Shown: positions 26,734 through 44,036, counted from the first letter of the stretch. The stretch is DNA of 64,000 nt from an uncultured Rivularia sp. (GCA_963665115.1 OY762007.1:1376001-1440000), one strand, 5' to 3'. Notes: generated from the sequence alone by a model not told the origin. Numbers and translations: made by a program.

Positions 26734-29469
26734 GTGATGTGGTCAAAGTTTAAAACGTTTTTATGGGAATGGCGTTTTGTTGCGATAACAACCCCTGCTG
26801 TAGCTTTGACTGTAATTGCAGCAAGTACCACAGGATGTTTTCAGCTTTTGGAGTGGACAACTCTAGAGCATTTTTTCGCTATCCGTCCTCATGAAAAGCC
26901 CGAAAAGCGAATTTTAATCGTCACTATTGACGAAAAGGACATCACCAAAGTTGGTAAATGGCCAATTCCGGGTGCTGTTTTGGCTGATGCTTTAAAAAAA
27001 ATCAATCAGCATCAGCCAGCAGTTATTGGTATGGATATTTTTCGAGACTTACCAGTGGAACCCGGTCATCAGAAACTGGTTAAGGTGATGCAGACTACAC
27101 CAAATTTGATTGGAATCAAAAAAATGTTAGGGGATAAAGTTGCACCATCCCCTACTTTATCTAAACTTAACCAAGTAGCTCTTGCCGATATGCTTTCGGA
27201 TACAGATGGTAAGGTTCGACGAGGATTGCTATCTGCGAATGATGGAAATAGCGGCAATGTTGTTTTGGGTTTAGCGGCAAATTTAAGCTTAAAATACTTA
27301 GAAGAAAAAGGTATTCAGTTAGCGAGTAACGACCCGGAAGGGAAATCTTTGCGATTGGGTAAAGCGGTATTTTATCCGCTTGCAGGAGAAGAATTTGCTT
27401 ACCGTGATGCAGATACGGCCATCTACCAAATTTTACTTAATTATCGCGATATAGACAACAATTTTGATACAGTTAGTTTGCGAGATGTGCTATCGGGTAA
27501 TTTGTCTGAAGAACAAGTGCGATCGCGCATCGTATTAATAGGTACGACGGCCAAGAGTGTTAATGATTTCCACAACATTGGCTATACTCCTAGCTTAAAA
27601 GATCAAAATGTTCCTATGGCTGGTGTGGTAATTCACGCTCATTTAGTTAGCCAGATTTTAAGTGCAGCATTGGATGGAAGACCTATGATAAATATCTTGT
27701 CTTCCCAAGGGGAATGGCTGTGGATTTTATGTTGGTCTTTTACTGGTAGTTGGGTTAGTTGGCAATTACTGCAAGTTAACTTAAAGGGGAAGCGAGGGTT
27801 TTGGGGATTATCCATATTAGGTATATCAATTGCTGTAGGAACTTTGATTGTTACTAGCTATGGCAGCTTTATGGTAGGTTGGTGGATTCCTACGGTTTCG
27901 CCTTTTATTGCTCTGATTAGTTCGGCAATTATAGTTAGTAGTTTTCATAAGCAATGGCAATTAGAACAAGCCAATGAAAAGTTACAGGAATATTCTCACA
28001 CTTTGGAAGTCAAGGTAGAAGAGAGAACTAAAGAATTAGTTAAAGCTAAAGAAGCAGCAGATGTGGCTTCTCAAGCTAAAAGTGAGTTTCTTGCGAATAT
28101 GAGTCATGAATTGCGAACACCTTTGAATGGTATTTTAGGTTACGCACAGATATTAAAACGTTCGCAAAATATAGCTAAAACAGAACTTGATGGAGTGGAA
28201 ATTATCTATCAATGTGGTTCCCATTTGTTGACTTTAATTAATGATATTTTGGATTTATCCAAAATTGAAGCTCGCAAATTAGAATTGCACTCCAATGATA
28301 TCAAATTTGATTCATTCTTAACTGGGGTTGCCGAAATATGTCGTATTCGTGCCGAACAAAAAGGTATTGGATTTTATTCTCAATTTGATTCGCAACTTCC
28401 GCTAATAGTAAATACTGACGAAAAGCGGTTACGTCAGGTTTTGATAAATTTATTAGGAAATGCAATCAAATTTACCGATAAAGGTGAAGTTTATTTTTCT
28501 ATTCGAGTAATAGAAAAATATGACTTAGATATAGATAGCGCTCAAAATATTTATAAAATTCGCTTTGAAATTATCGATAGCGGTGTGGGAATGACACCGG
28601 AACAATTAAGTCAAATATTTTTACCTTTTGAACAAGTGGGGGATAAAAATAAACAAGCTGAAGGTACGGGATTGGGATTGGCTATTAGTCGCAAAATTAC
28701 TGAATTAATGGGTAGTGGTATTAATGTAGAAAGTAATTTGGGTTTGGGTAGTAAATTTTGGTTTGATGTTGATTTAAAGGTTAGCCAGGAGAAGATACAG
28801 GACAAATCCGATTTATCAAACAGCCAAATTATCGGTTTGAAACACTGTAAACCTAATATTTTAGTCGTGGATGACCAGTGGGAAAATCGCTCAATTATTA
28901 TCAATTGTTTAAAAGCAATTGGTTTTTGTTGTTTTGAAGCAAGTAATGGTCAGGAGGGCTTAAAAAAAGCGGAAGATATCAAACCAGATTTAATTATAAC
29001 TGATATCTCTATGCCAGAAATAGATGGTTTGGAAATGATAGAAACTCTCAGAAATAATCAAGAATTTAGTAATGTACCAATTGTGGTGTCATCTGCTAGC
29101 GTTTACGAAAATGATGTTAAGCAAAGTTTAGCTGCTGGTGCGAATGAATTTTTACCGAAGCCCATACAAATAGATAACTTGTTACAAATTTTACAAAACT
29201 ATTTACAATTGGAGTGGATTTATGCCAAAAATGAACAAAAATATTTAAATGAAGAATCTATTGAGGAACAAGAATTAATCGCTCCTTCGGAAGAAGAAAT
29301 GGATAAATTATTCGATTTAGCTATGCGAGGAAATGTAAGTAGTATAGAAAATTTCTTAGAAAATTTAGAAAGTTCGGATCAAAGTTTCAAACCTTTCGTA
29401 GCAAAAATTAGAGAGCTTGCTGATAATTTCCAATTTAAACAAATTAGACAATATATAAAATCTTTCTAA
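26734..29469 (+). CDS. CHASE2-domain hybrid sensor histidine kinase
   Basis: CHASE2 ([21 protein letters not shown]), 3 [16 protein letters not shown], HATPase, C-terminal REC. Confidence 0.95.
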
Positions 29470-29635
29470 GTTGAAAAAATCTAATTATGAACCTTCTAAT
29501 TTTAGTTCAAAAACAAGCACCTAATATTCCACCGTAGAAATTATCACTTATAGGTAATTGAAGTTAGTATTCAGGGCTTTAGCCCTTACTACTAACCAGA
29601 TAAATTTTATCTAAAATCTAAAATCTAAAATTGAA

Positions 29636-30952
29636 ATGACTTATTCAGAACAGCCAATAGTTTTAATTGTTGACGATAATCCCACAAATATTAAAGTCCT
29701 ATCCGGAGCCATCGCTGATTCTGGATGGGAAATATTAGTAGCTACCGATGGTGAAAGTGCTATCGAACAAGCCGAATATGCTAAACCAGATTTAATATTA
29801 CTAGATGTAATGATGCCGGGAATCGATGGGTTTGAAGCTTGTAACCAACTCAAACAAAATCTCGCAACTCATGAAATTCCGATAATTTTCATGACAGCGC
29901 TTTCCGATACGGTAGACAAAGTAAAAGGGCTTTCTTTAGGTGCTGTAGACTATATTACCAAACCGTTTCAGACAGAGGAAGTATTAGCCCGTGTTAACAT
30001 ACATTTAAAAATGCGCTTTTTGAATAAGCAATTAGCAGAACAAAAAAATGATTTAGAAAAACGAGTAGAAGAGCGTACTGATGAACTAAAAACGGCTCTT
30101 AATAATTTGCAAGAATCTCAACTTCAACTTGTACAAACAGAAAAAATGTCTGCTTTAGGAGAATTAGTAGCTGGAGTTGCTCACGAAATTAACAATCCCG
30201 TGGGTTTTATTGATGGTAATCTGGAATTTTTGGAAGAAAATACGTCAGATATAATTAAACATTTACGACTTTATCAAAAATATTATCCTAACCCACAATT
30301 AGAAATCTCTAAAAATGCAAAAGATATTGAATTAGATATCTTAATTGAAGATATGCCTCAAATTATTTCTTCTATGAAAATAGGAGTAGAGCGTATTGGA
30401 AATATCAGTACTAGTCTGCGAACTTTCTCTCGTTCTGATAGTTCATTGAAAGTAGCTTGCGATATTCATGAAGGAATTGACAGCACTTTAATGATTCTCA
30501 AGCATCGGTTGAAAGCTAACAACAAACGACCAGAAATTAAAGTCCTGAGAAATTATGGAGATTTACCTTTAGTTAAGTGCTATTCGGGTCAATTAAATCA
30601 AGTATTTATGAATATTATTTCCAATTCTATAGATGCTTTAGATGATTATAACAGTAAATTATCTTATGAAGAAAAAAATAAAAATGCTAGCAATATTTTA
30701 ATTACAACCGAATTTGATTCAAATAGTGACAAAGTAAGTATATCTTTTAAAGATAATGGTCCTGGAATAGCAGGTGATGTATTAAAAAGTATATTTGAAC
30801 AGTTTTTCACTACGAAAAGTGTTGGCAAAGGTACTGGATTGGGATTATCTATCAGCAAACAGATAGTAGAAGAAAAGCATCAGGGTGAGTTAGTTTGTAA
30901 TTCCGTACCTGGAGAAGGAACAGAATTTACTATAGAACTTTCAGCGGAATAA
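29636..30952 (+). CDS. REC-histidine kinase hybrid
   Basis: LIVDD, DLILLDVMMP, GVAHEINNP, GKGTGLGL. Confidence 0.95.
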   Translation: MTYSEQPIVLIVDDNPTNIKVLSGAIADSGWEILVATDGESAIEQAEYAKPDLILLDVMMPGIDGFEACNQLKQNLATHEIPIIFMTALSDTVDKVKGLSLGAVDYITKPFQTEEVLARVNIHLKMRFLNKQLAEQKNDLEKRVEERTDELKTALNNLQESQLQLVQTEKMSALGELVAGVAHEINNPVGFIDGNLEFLEENTSDIIKHLRLYQKYYPNPQLEISKNAKDIELDILIEDMPQIISSMKIGVERIGNISTSLRTFSRSDSSLKVACDIHEGIDSTLMILKHRLKANNKRPEIKVLRNYGDLPLVKCYSGQLNQVFMNIISNSIDALDDYNSKLSYEEKNKNASNILITTEFDSNSDKVSISFKDNGPGIAGDVLKSIFEQFFTTKSVGKGTGLGLSISKQIVEEKHQGELVCNSVPGEGTEFTIELSAE

Positions 30953-31088
30953 ATTACAATATCATATTAAAACAAAAAAATCGCAATTTTTAGCTATTGC
31001 TAAACATAATAGAATTTAGTTATCTGCATCTACTTTTTCGCTTTTATATCATTATATTTTTTAATCTATTTTTTCGGATATTTATTAC

Positions 31089-31686
31089 GCGCAAACGCAG
31101 CCCATTTTCCCAGATAAAACTCTACCACAAAATTCCAGGATTAACCGGAATGGCAATATATATAATATAAATAATAGTACTGTAAAAGAAAGTAATTTAT
31201 TTCATAGTTTTGAACGGTTTAATGTGCCTAACGGTACTGAAACTGTATTTAATAATACTTCTAATATCAAAAATATTTTTACTAAAGTAACTGGTAATTC
31301 GATTTCTAATATTGACGGAATTTTAAAAGCCAACGGTAGCGCAAATCTATTTTTAATCAATCCTAACAGAATTCTTTTTGGCGATTAGGTGTACTGCACA
31401 AGGAGGTAATAACTTTACGCTAACAGGCAAAGGAGATTTACCAGAAAATTCCACGGTTAAATTAACGAGAATGACATTGTGGGCAGATTTACGGGTTCCT
31501 CAGCGAAGGGGGAGTGAGAAATCGATTGCAGAAAATAATCTTGCTTCTTATTCTCCAATTGTAGAAGCTACGGGTTGTGAATTAGATGAATTTGGAAGTA
31601 TCGAATTAGTGGCGATCGCACCGAAAAATTTTGAAGATTGGCAACAAATGCCTAATTGTGAGGAAGTACCAGTACGTAATAATTAA
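31089..31686 (+). pseudogene. internally deleted TpsA/FHA-like gene
   Basis: 31089-31388 encodes a start-less TPS domain (NLFHSF...NIFTKVTG...ANLFLINPN); 31378-31686 in another frame encodes the C-terminal tail (WADLR...PIVEATG...IELVA...C). Confidence 0.8.
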
Positions 31687-31888
31687 ATTAAATATCTACA
31701 AAAACTAGAGAAATTACGGATTCGGCATCTCTTTTATCTGTGTTCAATAGTACAAGTAACTTTATTAGATAAAGAATCTGTAAGGTGAGGTTATGTTAAT
31801 GATCGAGCTTCGCAGTAGGGGCTGAAGCCACTTACTACAAACAAACTGAATTGCCGATAGTTAAAAGTGCATCTATATAGAAGAAGCA

Positions 31889-34481
31889 ATGAATATAAAA
31901 AAAAAGCTTTTAAGATCAATTAGTTTAAGTCTGGCATTAGCAATAACTACGTCATTATTAATTACAATATTTTCTCCTGTATCGGCACAAGAGAATATAA
32001 AATCTATATCTCAAACCTCCTTGATTGCGAACGACAAAGCGAATCTACCTCAAATGCAATTTGACTTGGGTAAAGTCTTATTTGAAAAAGCAGACTTTGG
32101 TAAAGCGGCTGAAGTTTGGCGGGATGCTGCTGCTGGTTTTGAACGTCAGGGAGATAAAATCAATCAAGCTTGGAGTCTGAGTCTTGTTTCTTTAGCTTTG
32201 CAGAATCTGGGAGAAACTACAACAAGCCCAAACAGCTATCGATAAAAGTTTGATGTTGCTGCAAAACCAAAAAGGTAATACTGAAGTTTTGGCAGTAGCT
32301 CTCAATACTAAAGGAAGTTTAAAAATTAAAATGGGGCAAGCCAACGAAGCCCTCAAAGCTTGGAAAGAAGCAGAACGCATTTACATAAAGCTCCATGACA
32401 ACGATGGTAAAATAGGTAGTCAAATTAACCAAGCCCAAGCACTACAAGCAATGGGATTTTATCGGCGATCGCAAAAGTTGTTGGAGTCGGTAAATCAGAC
32501 TTTACTTTCCCAGCCAGATTCTCAATTAAAGGTTCAAGGTTTGCAAACTTTGGGAGTGGCTTTACAACTGGTGGGAGATTTGAGTAAATCTCAGGAAGTT
32601 TTAAAGCAAAGTTTAACTATATCCGAACGTCTTTCTCTCGATACCAGCGATATTTTATTTAGTTTGGGAAACACCGCTAGAGATTTAAAGCAAACTGAAG
32701 CAGCTTTTAATTACTATCAACAAGCAGCAAATAACCCAAAAAATCCTTTCATACAAGTTGAAGCGCGACTCAACCAACTGAGCTTACATATCGAACAGTC
32801 ACAATGGCAGCAAGCTTTTAGTCTACTACCACAAATTCAATCCCAGTTAGATACCATTCCTCCCAGTCGCAGTTCGATTTACGCCCTAGTCAATCTTAGC
32901 AAAAGTCTTTCCAAATTAATGCAGGCTCCCGGCGCTAAAGCTTCCCTAAATCAAGATGCAGCAAGAATTTTAGCCAGTGCGATCGAACAAGCAGAAACCC
33001 TTAAAGACTCACGCTCTCAAGCATACGCTTTAACTCAACTAGGAAGCTTATACGAACAAACAAATCAATTCAGCGAAGCCTTAAAACTTTCCCGTCAAGC
33101 TTTACAAATAGCTCAAAATATAAATGCTTCTGACATCACTTATCAAGCAGCTTGGCAAGTTGGACGAATTCTTAAAAATAAAGGAAAAAATCAAGAGGCA
33201 ATTTCAGCTTACGATTCGTCGATCAAAATTCTGAAAACTCTACGCAGCGACTTAGTAGCAATCAACCGAGACGTACAATTCGACTTCCAAGAAAGCGTAG
33301 AACCAGTTTACCGCCAATTCGTTGACTTATTATTACAACCCGAATCATCTCTAACCAAAGGAATCTCCCAAAAAAATCTCAAACAAGCCCGCAATACCCT
33401 CGAAGCACTACAGCTAGCCGAACTAGATAACTTCTTCCGCGAAGCTTGTATCGATGCAAAACCAGAACAAATCGATCGAATCGACAAAACAGCAGCAATA
33501 ATTTACCCAATTATTTTAGATAACCGTTTGGAAGTAATCGCATCAATTCCCGGCAAACCTTTAACCAGCTACAAAACTAATTTACCAGAAGCAAAGATCG
33601 AGGCGACAATTAAGCGATTAAGATTCTCCTTAAACCCTGCTTACTCGCAACAACAAAGATTAAAAGTATATCAACAAGCATACGACTGGTTAATTAAACC
33701 GATAGAAACAGACTTAGCAGCAAACAACATCAAAACCCTAGCATTCGTATTAGATGGTTCCATGCGAAACATCCCGATGGCTGCTTTATACGATGGCAAA
33801 CAATACCTCGTAGAAAAGTATAGCGTTGCTCTATCTCCGGGATTGCAGCTAATGCAAGCGCGACAATTGAAAGGTAATAACCTCAACGTAATTGCAGCAG
33901 GATTAAGCGAAGCCCGTCAAGGATTCAAAGCCCTACCTGGCGTAAAATCAGAAGTAAAAGAAATATCGAACCAGGTAAAATCAACCTTGCTTGTCAACGA
34001 AAGTTTTACCGACAAAAACTTAGCAAAAAGTATTAAAACAACTCCATTTTCAATCTTACATTTAGCCACCCACGGGCAATTTAGCAGCAACTCAGAAGAG
34101 ACTTTTATACTTACCTGGGATGGAAAAATAAACGTCAAACAACTCAGCGAATTTCTCCGCTTCCGAGACTTGTCCGAATCCGAACCAGTAGAATTAATGG
34201 TACTCAGCGCTTGTCAGACAGCCAAAGGCGACAAACGAGCCATATTAGGATTAGCAGGAGTAGCAGTACGTTCCGGCGCACGCAGCACATTAGCTACATT
34301 GTGGGCAGTAAAGGACGAATCCACAGCCAAATTTATGGTTGAATTTTACAAACAACTTAATAAACCAGGAATTAGTAAAGCCGAAGCCCTACGACAAACT
34401 CAAATAACTTTTTTAAGAGACGAAACCTTAACCCACCCCTTTTATTGGGCACCGTTTATATTAGTTGGGAATTGGATTTAA
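31889..34481 (+). CDS. exported TPR-CHAT (caspase-like peptidase) protein, +1 frameshift
   Basis: Signal peptide, TPRs, LHLATHG, LSACQTA.GD, HPFYWAPF; removing one A at 32214-32216 joins the two ORFs (QNLGELQQAQTAIDKSLMLL). Confidence 0.9.
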
Positions 34482-34590
34482 TTGGGCATAAGGGATTGGT
34501 AATTGGTAATTGGTAATTGGTAATTGATAATTGAGTAGCTAGTAATTCTTGTTTATGATAGTAGGAATGTAAATACAAATTCCTCAATCC

Positions 34591-35445
34591 ATGCAGGCAA
34601 TAAATGGCATCAGTCAACGCGAACTTTGTGAGTTGTTAGGGCTGGATTATCAAGCCGTTGCAGCTTCAGCCAAAGAGCAGGGAATAAGTCAAAATGCTTA
34701 TCTTCAACAAGAAACTGGCTGGGTTTTCAAAGACGAACTTTATTATCCACCAGATACGGATAGGGAAACCGAAACCGCTCAAAACAAACCAAAATCCCCA
34801 TCCCGACGCAAAAAATGGGTTGATATTTTGGGATTTGTTTGTGTGGGAATCGCTCTGGTTGGGGCCATAACTTTTGTCAATCAGGTGGGTATTGAGCAAA
34901 TTCGTGCCAATGTAGATAAATTAGGAATTTGGGCACCTATTGCTTTATTATTGCTGCGAACGGTAAGCGTTGTGATTCCGGCAATTCCTAGTACCGCTTA
35001 TTCGGTTTTAGCAGGTACTTTATTTGGCTTTTGGAAAGGAATTATTGTAATTTTCATCGCCGATTTTGCTGCTTGCTGTTTAAATTTTTATATTGCTAAA
35101 CGTTTTGGTCGTAAAATTGTCCAAAGGTTTGTCGGGGAAAGGTTTATAGATAAAGTTGATAATCTTGCATCGAAGCATCTTGAAGATAATATCTTTTTAG
35201 TAGCTGGATTTTTGATGACTGGATTATTTGATTTTGTTTGCTACGCTGTCGGGCTTACGGAAATGCCTTGGCATAAATTTATCCCAGCTTTGATTTTAGG
35301 AATAGTAGTTTCCACACCTCCGATTGTTGCTTTGGGTGCTGGTGTATTCAATCAAGCAAGATGGATGCTCGTACTTGCGATGTTGGGTATGTTTGGTTTG
35401 GCTATTTTTACGGGATGGTTGAATAAGAAACGCAGTAAAAGTTAG
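34591..35445 (+). CDS. TVP38/TMEM64 (VTT/DedA) membrane protein with extra N-terminal domain
   Basis: SVVIPAIP...AG.LFG, FYIAKRFG, FDFVCYAVGLT. Confidence 0.88.
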   Translation: MQAINGISQRELCELLGLDYQAVAASAKEQGISQNAYLQQETGWVFKDELYYPPDTDRETETAQNKPKSPSRRKKWVDILGFVCVGIALVGAITFVNQVGIEQIRANVDKLGIWAPIALLLLRTVSVVIPAIPSTAYSVLAGTLFGFWKGIIVIFIADFAACCLNFYIAKRFGRKIVQRFVGERFIDKVDNLASKHLEDNIFLVAGFLMTGLFDFVCYAVGLTEMPWHKFIPALILGIVVSTPPIVALGAGVFNQARWMLVLAMLGMFGLAIFTGWLNKKRSKS

Positions 35446-35483
35446 ATGTTTCACGCTTGATAGAATACAAACTCAACCTCTTG

Positions 35484-37883
35484 ATTAAACTCAACGAGGT
35501 TGTCACCAACCCCGTTGGTCTTCAAAACCGGACATGAAACTTTCACTTCATCCGGCTCCTCAATATCTCGGTGCTTGTTACACACACCTCGTACCGCGCT
35601 TATCTGTGGCGGTTTTTTCATCGTGGCAATGTCGATGTAATAATTGGAAATTTTTGTATTCATCCTTACCACCTTGAAAGCGGGGAATGATATGGTCGAT
35701 TTCCATTAAATCATCTTCTTTAAAGTAGAGTCCACAATGAGAACATTTACCTTTTTGCTTTTTGAGAAGTAATGAAATTCTCTTGTTAGCTTCCGGGTGT
35801 TTTCCCATTCTGGAACTCCAGTAGACCCAATCTCCGTCAAAAGGACTTCTTTTTGCTTGCACTTTTATATGCCTTAAAATAGAAGTTTCTGTATGTCGGG
35901 AAATCTTTTTAAATGAGTCTTTTTCAGTCTTTGCGAATCTCCAACCACCACCTTTATCAATCAGCCAGTATTTGTTAGATATCCAATATTGGCTTTTTGT
36001 TGGGTGGCGGTGAACTGCCCAGTTTTTTAATTGCTGGTACATCCAGTTATCTAGCGTCGAATATGCCTCACTACTTACTACTGAGGAAAAATAATTAGAC
36101 CATCCCGTTATTACCGGATTGAGTTCATTAATAAGTTTCAACTGTGTTGATGCTTTATGAACGTTGATGATTTTCTTAATTTTCTGTCGGTGTTTCTTAA
36201 GGCTTTCGTTACTAGGTTTGATAAGTGTTTTAAACCCAAGTGGTTTTCCAACAGTGTTCTTTCCTGATTGATATTTCCCAACCGGAAACTGCCTGATGGT
36301 GTGTCCCAAGAAGTTGAAACCCGTGCTTCCCTCATACTCTATGGTGTGAGAAATTCTTGTTTTACTAGGTTTAAGTTCTAGTCCCACTTCTTTTAACCAT
36401 TCAGATATTATTATTTGACATTGCTGTACTACCTCTAAATCTTCGTGTAAAATTACGAAGTCATCGGCAAAGCGAATTAGATGAGCGGCATTACGACGGG
36501 CTGCCACTTTGTTCTTTTCCCAGAAAACCTTTTCCGGAAAAGCTTGTCTAATTCGTTCTTCCATTCCATGAAGGGCAATGTTTGCTAATAATGGCGAACA
36601 AATGCCACCTTGTGGTGTACCTTCTTCTGTTGGAAATAGCTTTTTACTGTCTATCACCCCTGACTTTAGCCATGCTTTAATTTGACGGCGTATAGTAGGG
36701 GAGGTATTCAGTTTTGTCAATAATTTTGAATGGTCAATTCGGTCAAAACATTTCGCAATATCCGCGTCAAGCACATATTTGGCTTTAGTTTTTATTGCTA
36801 AAAATATCGCGCCGATTGCATCATGGGGTGAACGTCCCGGTCTAAAACCGTATGAATTTGGCTCAAATTTAGCTTCCCATTCGGGTTCCAGAGCCATTTT
36901 CACTAATGCTTGTAATGAGCGGTCTTTTATTGTGGGTATTCCTAAAGGGCGTTTTTCATCTGTTCCCGGTTTAGGAATCCAAATTCTACGTGTAGGTTTG
37001 GATTTTCCGGTTAAATTTAATCGCCTAACTAGCTTTAAACGTGCTTCTGGGGATAGTAGTTTAATCCCATCCACTCCTGCCGTCTTTTTACCAGTATTAT
37101 CTTGTGTTACCCGACGTACCGCTAAACATTTTGATGACCAAGACCTTATCAAAGTTCTTTGGAGTCGCCTGACTGTTTTGACATCGCCACGTTCTGAGGC
37201 TTTGAATATGCGTTTTTGCAGCTTAAAAACTCTCCTTTCTAGCTTACGCCAGGGGATGTTTTTCCATTCCATCATCGGGTTTTCAATCCGTGCTTTAGAC
37301 ATATATACTGCTACTCATACCTATTCAATCCAAGACATCGTGTCTACGTCTGCTTATCCCAATAATTACTTTGGGCATTGGCTTCTTAGACAATCTTTCC
37401 GCCTTGTTGCATCCGGTTAGTACCTACTCATGGTTTCGACCTACACATGAGAGCGAACAAGGGGTTACTTCGTTCCTGATAATCGTTAGTTGAATCGTTA
37501 GGATGATGCTCTTTGCCGGGTTTATTGGGAGTGCATATTGGTCGGAAGTGTAACCGCCAATCCCGTTATCCTTTACCTTTTGGTTATAGCCTATCAGCTT
37601 TATTTGGCTATTGACCTGTGACGACAATTCGGACACATCTTTGCTTTTGCTATCCATAGATTCATGCTCGATGGGAACCAGATTAAGCTTCCAGTTTTAC
37701 CACCTTTTCACCCCGCTTTACGGATTGATGACTAGTCGCTACCGTAGGGGTGATGCTGTTACCCCGGCACCTGGGGAGAAGGACTTACACCTTCACGATT
37801 ATCAAGTTGTCAAGGTTCAGTTTTTATCCTTTCCTTGCCACCCGTCCCTGAGTTTTTGCTCATTTAGGATGAACGAATCGCAC
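35484..37883 (-). mobile_element. complete group II intron (IIB/chloroplast-like class), 2400 nt
   Basis: 5' end GTGCGATTCGTT at 37883; domain V GAGCCGGATGAAGTGAAAGTTTCATGTCCGGTTT at about 35525-35558; domain VI with bulged A; 3' end ...GTTTAAT at 35484; intact RT ORF. Confidence 0.92.
35578..37302 (-). CDS. ltrA: group II intron reverse transcriptase/maturase with HNH endonuclease
   Basis: TAGVDG, RPLGIPT..DR, SYGFRPGR, DADIAKCFD, GTPQGG, RFADD, GW.NYF (domain X), CSHC...IDHIIP...LLHRHCH. Confidence 0.96.
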   Translation of the reverse strand: MSKARIENPMMEWKNIPWRKLERRVFKLQKRIFKASERGDVKTVRRLQRTLIRSWSSKCLAVRRVTQDNTGKKTAGVDGIKLLSPEARLKLVRRLNLTGKSKPTRRIWIPKPGTDEKRPLGIPTIKDRSLQALVKMALEPEWEAKFEPNSYGFRPGRSPHDAIGAIFLAIKTKAKYVLDADIAKCFDRIDHSKLLTKLNTSPTIRRQIKAWLKSGVIDSKKLFPTEEGTPQGGICSPLLANIALHGMEERIRQAFPEKVFWEKNKVAARRNAAHLIRFADDFVILHEDLEVVQQCQIIISEWLKEVGLELKPSKTRISHTIEYEGSTGFNFLGHTIRQFPVGKYQSGKNTVGKPLGFKTLIKPSNESLKKHRQKIKKIINVHKASTQLKLINELNPVITGWSNYFSSVVSSEAYSTLDNWMYQQLKNWAVHRHPTKSQYWISNKYWLIDKGGGWRFAKTEKDSFKKISRHTETSILRHIKVQAKRSPFDGDWVYWSSRMGKHPEANKRISLLLKKQKGKCSHCGLYFKEDDLMEIDHIIPRFQGGKDEYKNFQLLHRHCHDEKTATDKRGTRCV

Positions 37884-37975
37884 ACACTCCCCATGTCTAA
37901 AGACAAGGGGATTCTTAGTTCGCAGGGACACCAAATGTGGTGAAGTACTACTACTCCGCCACATTAATTTTGATG
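37884..37975 (-). mobile_element. right-end remnant of an IS200/IS605-family element (omega-RNA-like), interrupted by the intron
   Basis: Minus strand GAACTAAGAATCCCCTTGTCTTTAGACATGGGGAGTGT joined to CAA (35483-35481) rebuilds a subterminal hairpin plus GTGTCAA end; no tnpA/tnpB in the window; left boundary uncertain. Confidence 0.7.
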
Positions 37976-38481
37976 GTACTGTTGACATAAAGAATCTTTT
38001 CACCATATTATTTCGTGTTGAAAAGATATTTTTTAAGATAGAAATACTTTTGTGTTTTAAGAGATTTATAGTAACAACTATTAAGCTAGATCGGTAATTT
38101 AACGTATAAATAATCGATCGTTAAATGCTCGCTAAATCTGATACAAATATCACTGTTAAATGGTGATAAATTTAATATATATAAAAGTGTAGTTTTTTAA
38201 TATTGTAGGATATTCCTCTTTAATCGCTCGTTATAAATAGATTAAGGAGCCTACTTGTACAATAAAATAATCAGTGATAATGGTGCGTTGGGCACCAAAA
38301 TACATATTTCACAATCCGAATTAGCTCTCACTCCATAACACAATGGCAATCTTAAGGTTCGTAAATCTACATCCGAACACTTGCTATCTTTTTGCGGAAA
38401 CGCTCCGCTAACAACCATAGTGTTCTTCGCCAATTTACCAATTACCAATTACCAATTACCCATTACCCATTACCCTTTATC

Positions 38482-40332
38482 GTGTTAATTTGCCAAGTTC
38501 CTAATTGTTCAAATCCCTTCAATGTAGAAGGTAATAAACATTGTATCAGTTGTGGAGGAAGCAATTTTGGTAAATTTTTGAGGAACCGTTATCGCGTATT
38601 AAAATTGTTGGGAGAAGGTGGTTTTAGTAAAACTTATGCTGCTGTTGATGCAGATAGATTAGATGCACCTTGCGTTATTAAGCAGTTTTTCCCTCAAGTG
38701 CAAGGAACGAAAGCACGGGCTAAAGCAGCTCAGTTATTTCGAGAAGAAGCATTTCGTTTGTACGATTTGGGCGAAAATCATTGGCAAATTCCCAGATTAT
38801 TGGCTTTCTTTGAACAAGGTTCGAGTCTGTATTTGGTGCAGGAGTTAATTGAAGGGCAAACTCTTCTAGATGAACTTGATGATTTTACTTTTGATGAGGA
38901 ACGAATTAGAGGAATTTTGACCGATTTATTGCCAGTTTTAAATTTTATTCATTCTAATAAAGTAATTCATCGCGATATCAAACCCGAAAACATTATTCGT
39001 CGCAAGAGCGACGGAAAACTGGTATTAATTGACTTCGGTGGAGCAAAGCAAGTTACACAAACAAGTTTAGCAAGACAAGCTACAGTAATTTATACGATTG
39101 GTTATGCACCTGCCGAACAAATGGCTGGATTTGTATTTCCCGCAAGCGATTTATATGCTTTGGGGGTAACTTGCGTAAGGCTTTTAACTAAATGTTTACC
39201 TTTTCCAGATGATAGCGGACAATTTGATGACCGTATTTATGATGCCATGAATGGTGAATGGTTGTGGCGAAATATTCTACAAGAAAAAGGTATTACAATT
39301 AGCGAGCAATTAGGAAGAATTTTAGATAAATTGCTGCAACATTTAGTTAAAAATCGATATCAATCGGCAGCAGAAGTACTTGAAGATTTAGAACTTGAAA
39401 AATTAAAGTCGCCATTACCATCCAATAAAAAGCTTGAAACTTCAACAATTTTCCAAGCAGTTTCATCAATACCACAACCAGCATCACCCAGCTTGCAAAG
39501 CTTTGAATTTAATGTGGTAAAAGTAGACGAAACGGGTAGTTTAATTAAACGCTGGCGTAGAAAAGCAGACTTATTTATACAAAATTTGGTTGGTGAAATA
39601 AACCTGGAAATGATATCAATTCCCGGCGGTAGCTTTATCATGGGTTCGCCTTTGAATGAAGGAGATACAGACGAACGTCCGCAACATATCGTCACTTTAA
39701 AACCATTTTTTATGGGTAAATACCCAATAACTCAAGCTCAATGGAAAGCCGTCGCATCATTACCAAAAGTCAATCGTGCTATAAATCCCAACCCATCAAA
39801 ATTTAAAGGTGGGATTTTACCAGTTGAAAACGTATCTTGGTACGAAGCACAGGAATTTTGTGCGAGACTGCGAGAAAAAACCGGACGAGAATATCGTTTA
39901 CCCAGCGAAGCAGAATGGGAATATGCTTGCCGTGCAGGTACTAGCACCCCCTTTAACTTCGGTAAAAGCATTAATCCCGAATTGATCAACTGCAACATCG
40001 ATAAATATCATTCAATAGAAGCAATAAAAAAACACTATAAACAACCAAAACCCGTAGGCAGCTCCGGGCTAGCTAACGACTTTGGATTATACGATATGCA
40101 CGGGCAGGTATGGGAATGGTGCGCCGATCCTTGGCATAAAAATTACGAGAAAGCACCCACAGACGGAGCCGTTTGGCACTCCGGTGGAGACTTACATCGT
40201 CGAGTACTTCGCGGAGGCTCGTGGAATTTCAGTTCCTATTGTTGCCGTAGCGCTAGTCGTAGCTGGAACGAAACTGAAGGAGGGTTGAGGATGTGCGGTT
40301 TTCGATTGGTTGTTGGGAATGGGCATTGTTAA
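38482..40332 (+). CDS. Ser/Thr protein kinase fused to a formylglycine-generating-enzyme (SUMF1) domain
   Basis: 4-Cys prefix (C...C...C..CG), LGEGGF, HRDIKPEN, DFG; RLPSEAEWEYACRAG, GLYDMHG.VWEW. Confidence 0.93.
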   Translation: MLICQVPNCSNPFNVEGNKHCISCGGSNFGKFLRNRYRVLKLLGEGGFSKTYAAVDADRLDAPCVIKQFFPQVQGTKARAKAAQLFREEAFRLYDLGENHWQIPRLLAFFEQGSSLYLVQELIEGQTLLDELDDFTFDEERIRGILTDLLPVLNFIHSNKVIHRDIKPENIIRRKSDGKLVLIDFGGAKQVTQTSLARQATVIYTIGYAPAEQMAGFVFPASDLYALGVTCVRLLTKCLPFPDDSGQFDDRIYDAMNGEWLWRNILQEKGITISEQLGRILDKLLQHLVKNRYQSAAEVLEDLELEKLKSPLPSNKKLETSTIFQAVSSIPQPASPSLQSFEFNVVKVDETGSLIKRWRRKADLFIQNLVGEINLEMISIPGGSFIMGSPLNEGDTDERPQHIVTLKPFFMGKYPITQAQWKAVASLPKVNRAINPNPSKFKGGILPVENVSWYEAQEFCARLREKTGREYRLPSEAEWEYACRAGTSTPFNFGKSINPELINCNIDKYHSIEAIKKHYKQPKPVGSSGLANDFGLYDMHGQVWEWCADPWHKNYEKAPTDGAVWHSGGDLHRRVLRGGSWNFSSYCCRSASRSWNETEGGLRMCGFRLVVGNGHC

Positions 40333-40933
40333 GAGTAGAAAGTAGAGAGTAGAGAGTTAATCACTTTTTATTATTGTCATAAATGTCGCTACTCATTACT
40401 CATTACTCATTACTTTCTTATACTTATCTGCTGAAATTGGGAAACCTATAATTAAGCGATTTTGTATACAAATTTATGAATAAACCTTTGGCAAATAAAT
40501 ATAAGTCAGCGGTTGCTTTTAGTGCTTCATTTTCAAGTTTATCCCAATTCGACAGAAGCCATTGAAAAGGAAATTAGGTATGACAGAAGAAGTACGCGCA
40601 AAAATTTTCAATCCCTTCTATACAACAAAACCAGTCGGAAAAGGGACTGGTTTAGGGTTAGCAATTAGTTATCAAGTTGTTGTTGATAGACACCACGGAG
40701 AGTTGAACCGTTCTTCCACTCCGGGAGAAGGTACGGAATTTGCGATCGAGATTCCGGTTAAGCAGGTGAGTGGGTGAGGGGGAGATGGGGAGACAAGAGG
40801 ACATTATTAAAGTAGTGAGTAATGAGTAATAAGTAGTGAGTAGCGACATTTATGACAATAATAAAAAGTGATTAACTCTCTACTCTCTACTCTCTACTCT
40901 CTACTCTCTACTCTTAACAATGCCCAATTCCCA
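40314..40933. repeat. about 100-125 bp inverted repeat arms (40314-40416 and 40809-40933)
   Basis: 54-nt identical core GTAGAGAGTAGAGAGTTAATCACTTTTTATTATTGTCATAAATGTCGCTACTCA in opposite orientations. Confidence 0.9.
40562..40777 (+). pseudogene. orphan HATPase C-terminal fragment of a histidine kinase
   Basis: GMTEEV..KIF.PFYTTKPVGKGTGLGL...PGEGTEF.IEIP only; no H-box or N-box. Confidence 0.75.
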
Positions 40934-40936
40934 TTC

Positions 40937-41911
40937 TTAAACCAATTTCAAGTCAGCATACTCGGCTAATAAATCATCGCTGGTTAAGGTGTCACCATTA
41001 GCTTGGGGTGTCCACAATATCTCGAATGCGAGCAGTTTATCGCTGGGAATACCGCCAAATTGACTTAGTGCTTGACGCAAATCGTCGGAACTGTTGATGT
41101 TGGGAATTTCGGTTTTACCTAAAGTTGCTGCGAGTAAGGTAACAACTATATATTCTCCGGGACCTTGGGTAATTAAATCGGTGGGATTTTCTAGTTCTCC
41201 GGTGGATGGTAAAGCGTTTTTGGCTGTAGCAGATTTCAACTGGTTGTTGACGTTGGTTAATGTTTCTTCACTAAACTTGCTACGCTCTGCTAAGGATAAA
41301 CGGTTAAATTCTGATTCTGCTGAATTCAAACGTGCTTGTTTTGTACCGCCTCCTGCATAAACCCAATATTCGGGGTGACGCATTAAAGCAAGACTGGCTT
41401 CTTGTAATACTTGCGCTCTACCAATTGAGGACTCGGTATCGGCAGTTTCGGCAAGGTGATTTAGCTCGGTTTGTAGATCGCGGGCTTGAGCTAATAAGCC
41501 TACCTGCAAGCGAGTTACGGAAATTTGAGGGTTGCTGCTGTAGCCCATTTCTTCCCCTCCATCGCTAGCAACTCTACGGAAGGTTTGTACTGCAAAGTTA
41601 GCTAAAGCAAAGAAAATTAAGATCCCAAATAAACCTCCGAATCCTCCACCTATACCTATAAAGGGGAATAGGAAAGGAAAACCAAATCCACCTCCGGGAT
41701 AACCTCGATATCCACCTCCGGGAGGAGCATATGTGCGAGGAGATGAGTAACCACGGCTTGAAGGCATTCTGAAGGAACCGCCCCCAATTCTTCCTCCGCT
41801 ACCACGGGCTAAGGCTCCGGGTGCTTGGCTAAATACCAATGTAAACGCGAGGAACAGAACTAAGAGGGGTTTGGAAAGCCGTTTGATGGCATTTTGTAGT
41901 TTTTTACGCAT
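40937..41911 (-). CDS. DUF1517 domain protein
   Basis: Signal peptide, SGGRIGGGSF, Gly-rich TM, LQVGLL, EILWTPQ...D.L. Confidence 0.9.
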   Translation of the reverse strand: MRKKLQNAIKRLSKPLLVLFLAFTLVFSQAPGALARGSGGRIGGGSFRMPSSRGYSSPRTYAPPGGGYRGYPGGGFGFPFLFPFIGIGGGFGGLFGILIFFALANFAVQTFRRVASDGGEEMGYSSNPQISVTRLQVGLLAQARDLQTELNHLAETADTESSIGRAQVLQEASLALMRHPEYWVYAGGGTKQARLNSAESEFNRLSLAERSKFSEETLTNVNNQLKSATAKNALPSTGELENPTDLITQGPGEYIVVTLLAATLGKTEIPNINSSDDLRQALSQFGGIPSDKLLAFEILWTPQANGDTLTSDDLLAEYADLKLV

Positions 41912-42982
41912 GATACAGTCAGTTAAAAACGATATTATCTATAGTTGATGTTGATGCCAATTTTATTAACAATTTAAAGGATATATTCTTTAATTTTGCT
42001 TGCTGTCTTCCGTTCTTAACAGCGCGGCTGATTGGCACTTTTACTTTTACTTTTAGTTGCTTTACTGGCTACATATTTAATTTATCGCTTCTGACTATGG
42101 TTAGACAGTGACCCTTGGAGGGAAATCCACTGTAGATAACCGTACCTTAATAGTTCAACAGAACGAGCATAACTTCACTTTTTTTTAGCTAACCGCTTGC
42201 TCTTAATCAATTTAGTGGTAGTAATAGCCACTTTTTACTATCTTGTTATGTCATTCAGTACTTATCTATATTGATATTTGTAATGAGAAGGACTGAAAGC
42301 AATCTACTAGTATATTTTATTACCTCTTGTTTCTAAGAGATTTATGTATCTAGGAATACAATTATATTTAAAATTTTGATGAAGTAAGATTAATTAAATT
42401 TTAGCTAATTATAACAGCACTACGCAGGAGCAACCGTAAATACACTATTCTAGACATTGATAACTCCTTAACTTGGCTGTTTGAAGCGATATTTTTCTAA
42501 GTACTGTATAAGAAATATTACTCTCCGTATTAAATTTGTGTGTAGCAAGCTTGTTATGCAAGTGGCGATTACTAATTTATTTGCGCGTGAGTTTACTGAT
42601 TCGGTCAACAAGCTTTTTTTCTCTGGCATTACGTATATAGACTATTTTTGAGTTAACATCAAGCAAGTATATCTTTCAGGTAAATTATGAACGTAATTAT
42701 TTGTAAGTAGTAATTCTTATTTATATCGATCTAACTATACTAAACGTAAATGCAGTATCGCTTACCGGAGGATAAATCTACTTTTATTTGGGGTTGGCAT
42801 CAATAGCTTTGGGCAGACAGCTTTAAGAGTGGAAAACTAGCGTACAAGCTTATTATTCAAGCAATTTGTAATCCTTGAATGCTATACCTTTCCTAGACTA
42901 AAGCGTGGTTATCAAGATATTAACGTTGCACCATCCCTTGTGGATCAACGTGTTTGTCAAGTATCAGAAGGGTGAAAAGCTA

Positions 42983-43429
42983 ATGAAGCTAATGTTGGTA
43001 TGTACTTCCGGAGGTCATTTTTCAACTATGAGAAGATTAGAGTCGTTTTGGTCAAATCACGAGCGGGTATGGGTGACTGACTGGAAAAAAGATACAAATT
43101 TATTGGAGGATGAGGAAAAAGTTCATTGGTTGCCTTATCAAGCTCCCAGAGATATTTGGGCTTTTTTGCATAATCTTCCTCGGGTGTTTAAGTTAGTTCA
43201 TTTTGAACAACCGGATATAGTCGTTTCAACTGGAGCTAGTATCGCCGTTGGCTTTGCTTTTGCAGCTAAATTATTTGGTAAACGGTTTGTCTATGTCGAA
43301 AGTATATCTCGTTCAGAGGAACTGAGTTTATCTGGAAAATTGGTTTATAAATTGAGCGATGAATTTTATGTTCAGTGGCCTAATTTATGTCGTAAGTATC
43401 CAAAAGCAATTTTTAAAGGGTATGCTTAG
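42983..43429 (+). CDS. Alg14/PssD-like glycosyltransferase subunit
   Basis: LVCTSGGH, STGA, YVESISR, SLSGKL, YVQW. Confidence 0.9.
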   Translation: MKLMLVCTSGGHFSTMRRLESFWSNHERVWVTDWKKDTNLLEDEEKVHWLPYQAPRDIWAFLHNLPRVFKLVHFEQPDIVVSTGASIAVGFAFAAKLFGKRFVYVESISRSEELSLSGKLVYKLSDEFYVQWPNLCRKYPKAIFKGYA

Positions 43430-43472
43430 AGGCTTTTATTAAGGTACAAAAATCAATTTGATTTAAAAAAAA

Positions 43473-43957
43473 ATGATTACAGTAACATTAGGAACGATTC
43501 CCTTTTCTTTCGATCGAGCTATTAATTGGCTAGATAGTCTTTTAGACTCTGGGGTAATTTCGGAAAGTATTTTTGTGCAACATGGAACGACTGATGTATC
43601 TAAGCTGGCAAAATATCCTTTCGTAAAAACTACACCAATAGTTGAAACGAGCTTTTTAATGAAGACAATACAAGAGTCTCGGTTGACTATATCTCATGCA
43701 GGGCAGGGGTTAACTCGGGGATTAGCAGATAGGGGAGCGTGTTTTATTTTAGTACCGCGTTTATCTTGTTACAACGAGCATATAGACGACCATCAATTAT
43801 GGTTTGCGCGAGGAGTAGAGAAAATGGGGATACCTTACTGTACTAGTTTAGATAATTTAGAGCAGGCAATAAAATGTCCGCCACCTAGTTTTAAAGGACA
43901 AATATTCGAGGGGGCCCTAGATTAGCAGAGCATTTGATGCAGATATATCCGGCATGA
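43473..43957 (+). CDS. Alg13/PssE-like glycosyltransferase subunit, +1 frameshift at the 3' end
   Basis: VTLGT..F.FDR, ISHAG.G, VPR...EHIDDHQ; removing one base in GGGGGCCC at 43910-43917 gives GPRLAEHLMQIYPA*. Confidence 0.85.
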
Positions 43958-44036
43958 GTCGCAATAATGCAATAATAAAATATTGAAAAACAGAATATAG
44001 CTTAAAAATATTTAAAGATTTGGAGCAAGAGTTCGT

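Follow-up and report, generated by a model that had tools for sequence, protein, structure and literature searches.

An uncultured Rivularia sp. carries a group II intron at the edge of what looks like a transposon end, which raises the question of whether this position is an accident or the address of an intron lineage and, if the latter, whether the insertion bears on the RNA-guided system to which such ends can belong. A preliminary description had proposed that the intron is specific for the right end of an IS200/IS605 (TnpB, omega-RNA-type) element and may gate its guide RNA through splicing. We followed up this proposal in the whole 64,000-nt stretch of DNA analysed (GCA_963665115.1 OY762007.1:1376001-1440000, hereafter the window; positions are counted from its first base), in other genomes and metagenomes and in the literature. 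The features are collected in Table 1.

Table 1. Intron, exon and flank features at the locus, with the intron of a second lineage (window positions unless a locus is named).
Feature	Position	Strand	Remarks
Group IIB (chloroplast-like) intron, 2,400 nt	35484..37883	minus	GTGCG start 37883, AAT end 35484
Domains V and VI	35484..35561	minus	Rfam RF00029 match 35484-35560, 52.1 bits, cut-off 40
Intron-encoded protein (IEP), 574 aa, open frame	35578..37302	minus	RVT_N, RVT_1, GIIM, HNH domains
EBS1 ACACTT, intron positions 333-338	37546..37551	minus	covariation z 5.6-10.5, 61 introns
EBS2 CAGGT, intron positions 266-270	37614..37618	minus	covariation z 5.7-8.7; 4/5 pairs with own exon
EBS3 G, intron position 373	37511..37511	minus	pairs with first base C of 3' exon; z 5.1, 15 introns with both ends
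IBS1 GAGTGT	37884..37889	minus	includes -6 to -4 of predicted omega-RNA pseudoknot strand
IBS2, in 3' arm of right-end hairpin	37892..37896	minus	
IS200/IS605 right-end remnant, 5' part	37884..37934	minus	GAAT 37914-37911, hairpin 37911-37888; no tnpB, no nexus hairpin
CAA, final three bases of IS right end	35481..35483	minus	C = IBS3
Host flank, would-be 16-nt guide	35465..35480	minus	CTAC precedes same flank at IS-free orthologous site, G003
Dispersed palindromic repeat abutting remnant	37934..37976	no strand	outside IS; present at IS-free G003 site
Second-lineage (G322) intron, 504-aa IEP, YADD, ends ACT	L249:4773-6957		also L248, L250, L251, L257-L259

The intron is present as a single copy, BLASTN having found no second one in the 8.69-Mb genome. 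Its GUGYG start, AY end, domains V and VI, IEP of the reverse transcriptase (RT)-maturase-HNH type and EBS1-3 pairings are those of subgroup IIB (CL). CL1 and CL2 are class names within CL introns; our trees contain no reference introns, and the assignment is to the subgroup and not to a numbered CL class. Class IIC introns, which target hairpins, have no EBS2, a short EBS1 and no endonuclease; this class was ruled out for the window intron, whose EBS2 covaries with the exon, whose EBS1 has 6 nt and whose HNH domain is present. We also ruled out an IStron, as the intron belongs to group II and not to group I, is internal to the right end and does not have its splice sites at the IS ends. EBS1, EBS2 and EBS3 pairings are given as a group IIB criterion by PMC2882425. 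The IEP matches TIGR04416, the NCBIfam model for the group II intron RT/maturase, with 329 bits against a cut-off of 300, and is under purifying selection, with dN/dS of 0.07-0.17 against five relatives (two of these five comparisons being saturated). The RT motif of the window IEP is FADD. Four close relatives have broken reading frames, which counts against a homing intron; so may the replacement of YADD by FADD, shared by five of the six core lineage members. Upstream on the intron strand, three candidate promoter sites were found against 2.8 expected by chance. A run of genes read from open reading frames at 26734-34481 of the window would encode a putative CHASE2-type hybrid kinase, a response-regulator kinase and a TPR-CHAT protein.

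The 5' exon presents GAAT, a hairpin and GTGT in this order and the 3' exon starts with CAA, so that the intron splits GAGTGT/CAA. The hairpin (-7.5 kcal/mol, z -3.68) was matched in stability by none of 200 shuffles. The GAAT guide, subterminal hairpin and terminal TCAA of IS200/IS605 right ends are all there, and GGGGAGTGTCAA occurs eight further times in the genome, seven of them behind GAAT and a hairpin. Judged by its sequence, the exon is an IS200/IS605 right end with the intron three bases inside it; the preliminary description had read it in this way, and the sense orientation and the distance of 3 nt to the element boundary that it gave were borne out by the junction reading. Ten intron-free ends of the same type are found in this genome, four directly behind full-length tnpB, and three near-identical IS copies part in sequence right after TCAA, their left ends following TTAC. 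The further expectation that the rejoined exon matches IS ends elsewhere in the genome stood at the level of the motif (GGGGAGTGTCAA) and failed for the longer sequence: neither BLASTN nor a 36-nt search allowing up to seven substitutions found an end matching the exon join in the genome, because hairpin interiors vary. The identical hairpin terminates an intron-free element in another genome (L183), and 51-nt matches of the exon to intact IS ends were found in other genomes.

The IS host at the locus is a 54-bp remnant (51 nt plus CAA). The preliminary description had extended the IS end over 37884-37975; 37884-37934 together with CAA remains, and the rest belongs to the separate palindromic repeat, of which dozens of copies occur in the genome and others across the family. 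No TnpB match was found within 2.1 kb upstream of the remnant, which lacks the tnpB and left end of a complete IS605 element; the nexus hairpin or partner loop of a full omega-RNA scaffold is missing at the remnant (L132), and a scan of 30000-44000 against Rfam, with E values allowed up to 1, detected no family of omega-RNAs. The closest relative with the locus (G003) has the palindrome, about 290 bp of extra flank, no IS, and CTAC directly before the downstream flank, and it thus offers the empty allele with the target motif in place. Two elements that are similar in their 3' region (L180 and L203, boundaries drawn by eye) also seem to start behind CTAC. The empty site and its CTAC suggest that an IS inserted at the locus, and that the arrival of the intron and the loss of most of the IS followed in either order.

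Target recognition was studied by covariation, scored as the complementarity of alignment columns with exon positions against permuted exons. The set was reduced from 124 intron 5' regions to 101 with sufficient exon and similarity, and to 61 after removal of near-copies. The peaks joined intron positions 333-338 to exon positions -1 to -6 and 266-270 to -9 to -13. Their z values (Table 1) overstate significance since the introns are kin; both registers are nonetheless contiguous and antiparallel. On the same scale, intron position 264 covaries with exon position -14 (z 10.0), out of the EBS2 register, possibly as an alignment effect. The loop that had been proposed as EBS1 (37551-37546) proved right to the base, and it pairs with GAGTGT through five Watson-Crick pairs and one G-U pair. 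On the 10 free ends in this genome, EBS2 would form at most three pairs plus a wobble, against four Watson-Crick pairs out of five at its own site. This poorer fit may explain why a single one of the 11 ends of this type in the genome is occupied, a count that speaks against homing, as does the imperfect EBS1/EBS2 pairing of several relatives (for instance four of six EBS1 pairs in L032).

Relatives were gathered with the intron DNA in 41, 401 and 389 genomes, with the protein (80 loci), with the first 25 bases of the intron in metagenomes (11 loci) and with the junction pattern in 401 genomes. Ranked by identity in domain I, the first 12 introns (at least 0.82, the window intron included) all lie after GAGTGT, against none of the next 22 listed. 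Among these 22, a degenerate ORF-less intron (L236) sits between AGAATCCCC and CAA. The 11 closest relatives occupy different IS ends and flanks, and the specificity that had been suggested for the intron holds at the level of the lineage. Nine of them were found by intron sequence or protein alone and two by a pattern containing the exon. A GAAT-led hairpin end is visible in nine; one further contig begins 6 nt upstream of the intron and in the last case another intron lies just upstream. The 3' exon could be seen in nine relatives, starting with CAA in eight and CAT in one, with flanks that all differ and bases that are unconserved from +4 onward. The hairpin interiors also differ among hosts, which fall in different TnpB groups, and contigs of relatives from two microbial-mat studies (X10, X11 and X18) align from CAA or up to GAGTGT and no further. 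The junction pattern gave five matches, this genome included, in the 401 genomes across the order and none in 401 genomes drawn across the class; a plasmid collection held no close member of the lineage (best 66-70%), and the two matches checked there are not at IS605 ends. We conclude that the intron insertion is real and the choice of site lineage-specific, the site, the three pairings and the identical site in the 11 closest relatives being observed.

The protein tree, built from 45 rows (the top 44 by identity plus one outgroup, with L246, L247, L128, L131 and L235 left out), placed six members in one starred clade (96/99) and paired L122 with a non-IS intron. In the domain I tree (34 rows, EBS columns removed), use of the site requires two changes, and a single clade was not rejected (AU p 0.288). 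On these alignments, a single origin of site use is neither shown nor rejected. Several candidates were discarded as members: L154 is a chance antisense match within an IEP gene (it is still counted among the 55 ends of the loop survey below), and L123/L125 and L252/L253 represent other introns, inserted at non-IS sites. In L123 and L125, a short sequence similar to the EBS1 stem-loop of the window intron stands 45 nt before another intron that has internal deletions, by chance or as a remnant. The 2,458-bp contig L046 consists of 55 nt of IS end, the intron (91% amino acid identity) and CAA, and comes from a non-cyanobacterial bin, probably through a binning error. Stacked introns were also seen, with a second one about 110 nt upstream in the same element (L032:2600-2766), one 7 nt upstream of the -4/-3 site (L247:1-130) and one nested in the IEP ORF (L235).

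The same bond, between positions -4 and -3 of the right end, is used by an unrelated group II intron present in four copies in G322, which has no DNA match to the window intron at E 1e-10 and 44% identity to it in the RT region. Three of its four 5' junctions follow hairpin-GAGTGT behind tnpB, which is intact in two of these hosts, and the fourth is at a GAGTGT that belongs to no IS; of the 3' junctions, three begin with CAA and one with CGC, the pairing of ends being uncertain in this collapsed assembly. A domain I loop of this intron, ACACTC, fits GAGTGT. None of 30 other loci of the G322 lineage examined (three of them without 5' end) showed GAGTGT. A script that classed 161 introns put 10 at -4/-3, 20 at other positions within or close to tnpB elements (at least one of these falsely) and 131 elsewhere. 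Additional lineages occupy -9/-8, -13/-12, the interior of GAAT, a position about 50 nt upstream, and codons of tnpB. Cyanobacterial introns in general find a refuge in TnpB elements.

Among these other insertions, the hairpin-foot lineage at -9/-8 is represented by L293 (G625), L294 (G604), L296 (G718) and L305 (G557), with several other copies at looser non-IS sites, and L293 contains a head-to-tail tandem intron array behind tnpB. L299, L300 (G190), L301 (G293) and L034 (G022) lie at -13/-12 of ends reading GTCGG/TGAGT, within GAAT or about 50 nt upstream in the omega-RNA region. Introns interrupt the tnpB coding sequence, at several conserved motifs, in L017, L027, L058, L077, L079, L084, L094, L141 and L142, L079 having two introns in one tnpB. 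Four genomes (L037-L040) share an intron family that always sits in the DxDG motif of a putative HAD-type gene, the motif being recognised in the exon sequence.

In the ISDra2 scaffold, the pseudoknot involves positions -5 to -3, with non-canonical pairs at -6 and -2 (PMC10097598). We found a hairpin with the loop GGRCA 60-200 nt upstream of 27 of 55 ends reading TGT followed by CAA or an intron, against 9 of 5000 random windows, and the loop changes to GGRCG in five of six TACGTCAC ends (CGTCAC), a compensatory change. From the ISDra2 structure and this covariation, the intron lies within the predicted pseudoknot strand, which IBS1 overlaps; the bond itself falls in the motif cleaved by TnpA and, as predicted from homology, in the pseudoknot strand of the omega-RNA. 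The preliminary idea that an RNA-guided system is gated at this very locus did not survive, since nothing is there to gate in a remnant with neither tnpB nor partner loop. Upstream sequence of at least 1.2 kb is available for 11 hosts that carry the intron: three have an intact tnpB (L128, L249 and L251, with a full-length TnpB, all three RuvC motifs and a nexus hairpin), three a broken one (L031, L131 and L248) and five none; gating may occur in the three with an intact gene. Neither the spliced nor the unspliced predicted guide has a self-target after YTAC in the genome at 10 nt. Neither a spliced junction nor an empty allele occurred among the joints listed for contigs of eight public runs, of which X1-X3 are probably source DNA; the RNA runs hold only relatives, so that a missing spliced joint is no evidence against splicing.

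The best reading is likely that of a retroelement which uses a conserved multicopy transposon end as its landing site. More precisely, we would put at roughly 0.8 the probability that a group IIB intron pairs through EBS1-3 with an IS200/IS605 right end of the hairpin-GAGTGTCAA type and belongs to a lineage that retrohomes there as a parasite, likely because such an end is conserved and present in many copies and can be spared by the host. An IS605-type element would first have inserted after CTAC; the intron RNP would then have entered its right end by reverse splicing at the -4/-3 bond, and a deletion, before or after this step, would have taken the remaining IS with about 290 bp of flank. 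As three IS bases stand downstream and the bases from +4 onward are unconserved, the protein likely needs no specific 3' exon sequence. Where the host retains tnpB, the tnpB/omega-RNA transcript is predicted to include the intron. The precursor would carry the scaffold followed by intron sequence instead of flank, and only the spliced RNA would regain the full pseudoknot and the flank-derived guide. Since the pseudoknot strand shares bases with IBS1, splicing would be in competition with the folding of the omega-RNA, a consequence that is moot at the window locus.

Several other explanations of the same facts have to be weighed. The intron could serve its host element as a splicing-gated omega-RNA, the inverse of an IStron: splicing would yield an active guide, TnpB would cut the empty site and repair would copy IS and intron together, to the gain of both. 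The insertion divides the predicted pseudoknot strand and parts scaffold from guide, L128, L249 and L251 keep the TnpB and nexus hairpin that this would require, and IStrons show that a coupling of splicing and omega-RNA use is possible (bioRxiv 10.1101/2023.11.20.567912). Yet tnpB is intact in 3 of 11 cases where the end is occupied and, in this genome, in 4 of 10 where it is free, with no sign of better maintenance, the window host has neither tnpB nor nexus, and other intron lineages occur at many other positions of tnpB elements, as general parasitism would have it; we thus regard such gating as unlikely. A slightly less doubtful, still tentative proposal is that the -4/-3 bond is a convergent landing site for unrelated introns at which, where tnpB is intact, the guide RNA depends on splicing, which would switch TnpB on and let the intron spread both through its own RT and through homing by TnpB.

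It might also be that the intron has no preference for IS ends as such. An intron that recognised just GAGTGT-C, its other insertions being purged or lying in untranscribed DNA, would need no adaptation to the IS; GAGTGT sites outside IS ends are occupied by one of the four G322 copies and, in G887, by a different kind of intron that has no ORF, and EBS2 varies within the lineage. We consider this improbable, since GAGTGTC occurs 216 times in the genome, 10 of these being IS ends, and yet the hairpin end is visible in nine of the 11 relatives and a clearly non-IS context in none; moreover, the EBS2 variants match variants of the hairpin arm in L122, L131 and the window. Still further from what we would expect, indeed very improbable, is joint transposition, in which TnpA would bind the hairpin, cut TCAA at the 3' end of the intron and move IS and intron together, with no retrohoming. 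At the DNA level, where the preliminary description had proposed a block of the element end, the intron parts the native T from CAA but restores TCAA with its own last T in both lineages; L131 holds tnpA, tnpB and the intron, and TnpA locates its cut site through the GAAT guide and not by protein contact (PMC3201880, PMC5934647). Against it, no two copies share the same IS host, the TnpBs of the three G322 hosts being about 59-63% alike and the other hosts all different, and the cut site of IS608 lies 10 nt from the hairpin foot (PMC3201880), compared with 2.4 kb here.

The insertion site gives a recurring intron target a name: its bases would be at once the TnpA cut site, the omega-RNA pseudoknot strand and the scaffold/guide boundary. 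It fits the known pattern of introns homing into insertion sequences, to which the position and the convergence add interest; if parasitism alone were true, it would be a tidy addition to the known nesting of introns in these elements. The site offers a direct test of interference between an RNA-guided transposon and a retroelement, as a mirror of the IStron case, with L128, L249 and L251 as natural substrates. A practical consequence is that guide prediction from the DNA flank would fail at intron-bearing tnpB loci.

In the titles and abstract openings searched, with few subscription papers among them, no group II intron is described in an IS right end or omega-RNA, and the searched text of PMC13565253, PMC7923331, PMC10055086 and bioRxiv 10.64898/2026.10.21.760802 mentions no such insertion. 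The literature does report introns that share a conserved site in an IS200-family element; it is the -4/-3 position that did not appear in the texts searched. Mohr et al. (2010) described three introns at a conserved site of ISEL1, an IS200-family element of Thermosynechococcus elongatus (PMC2882425). These F4 introns resemble the window intron as cyanobacterial group IIB introns with EBS1-3 targeting; unlike it they are ORF-less, and the study, which predates the omega-RNA, is compared here through its text, the position in ISEL1, which may be at the same bond, being shown in its Figure 1. RmInt2, found in the inverted repeats of ISRm17, and RmInt1, found in ISRm2011-2, likewise land in multicopy transposon ends with relaxed EBS2 pairing, but in other IS families, with IEPs that have no endonuclease and at ends that encode no guide RNA (PMC4615759). 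The hiding introns of Waldern et al. (2020), of which the CL class is enriched in transposase neighbourhoods, offer another parallel, IS200/IS605 having no occurrence in the main text of that paper (PMC7306698). The exon shares the GAAT guide, hairpin and TCAA cleavage motif of the IS608 right end (PMC3201880, PMC5934647), with four bases instead of ten from hairpin foot to TCAA and as an intron-interrupted remnant, and, as in the ISDra2 omega-RNA (PMC10097598), the predicted pseudoknot is made of the last scaffold bases. A functional parallel may be drawn with the IStrons, group I intron-IS605/IS607 chimeras in which splicing competes with omega-RNA folding for the same right-end nucleotides, including a pseudoknot (bioRxiv 10.1101/2023.11.20.567912). 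In an IStron, intron and IS are one and the same, and splicing cuts the guide off from the scaffold. The right end studied here instead contains a group II intron as a separate unit with its own RT, and the splicing of this intron would join scaffold and guide.
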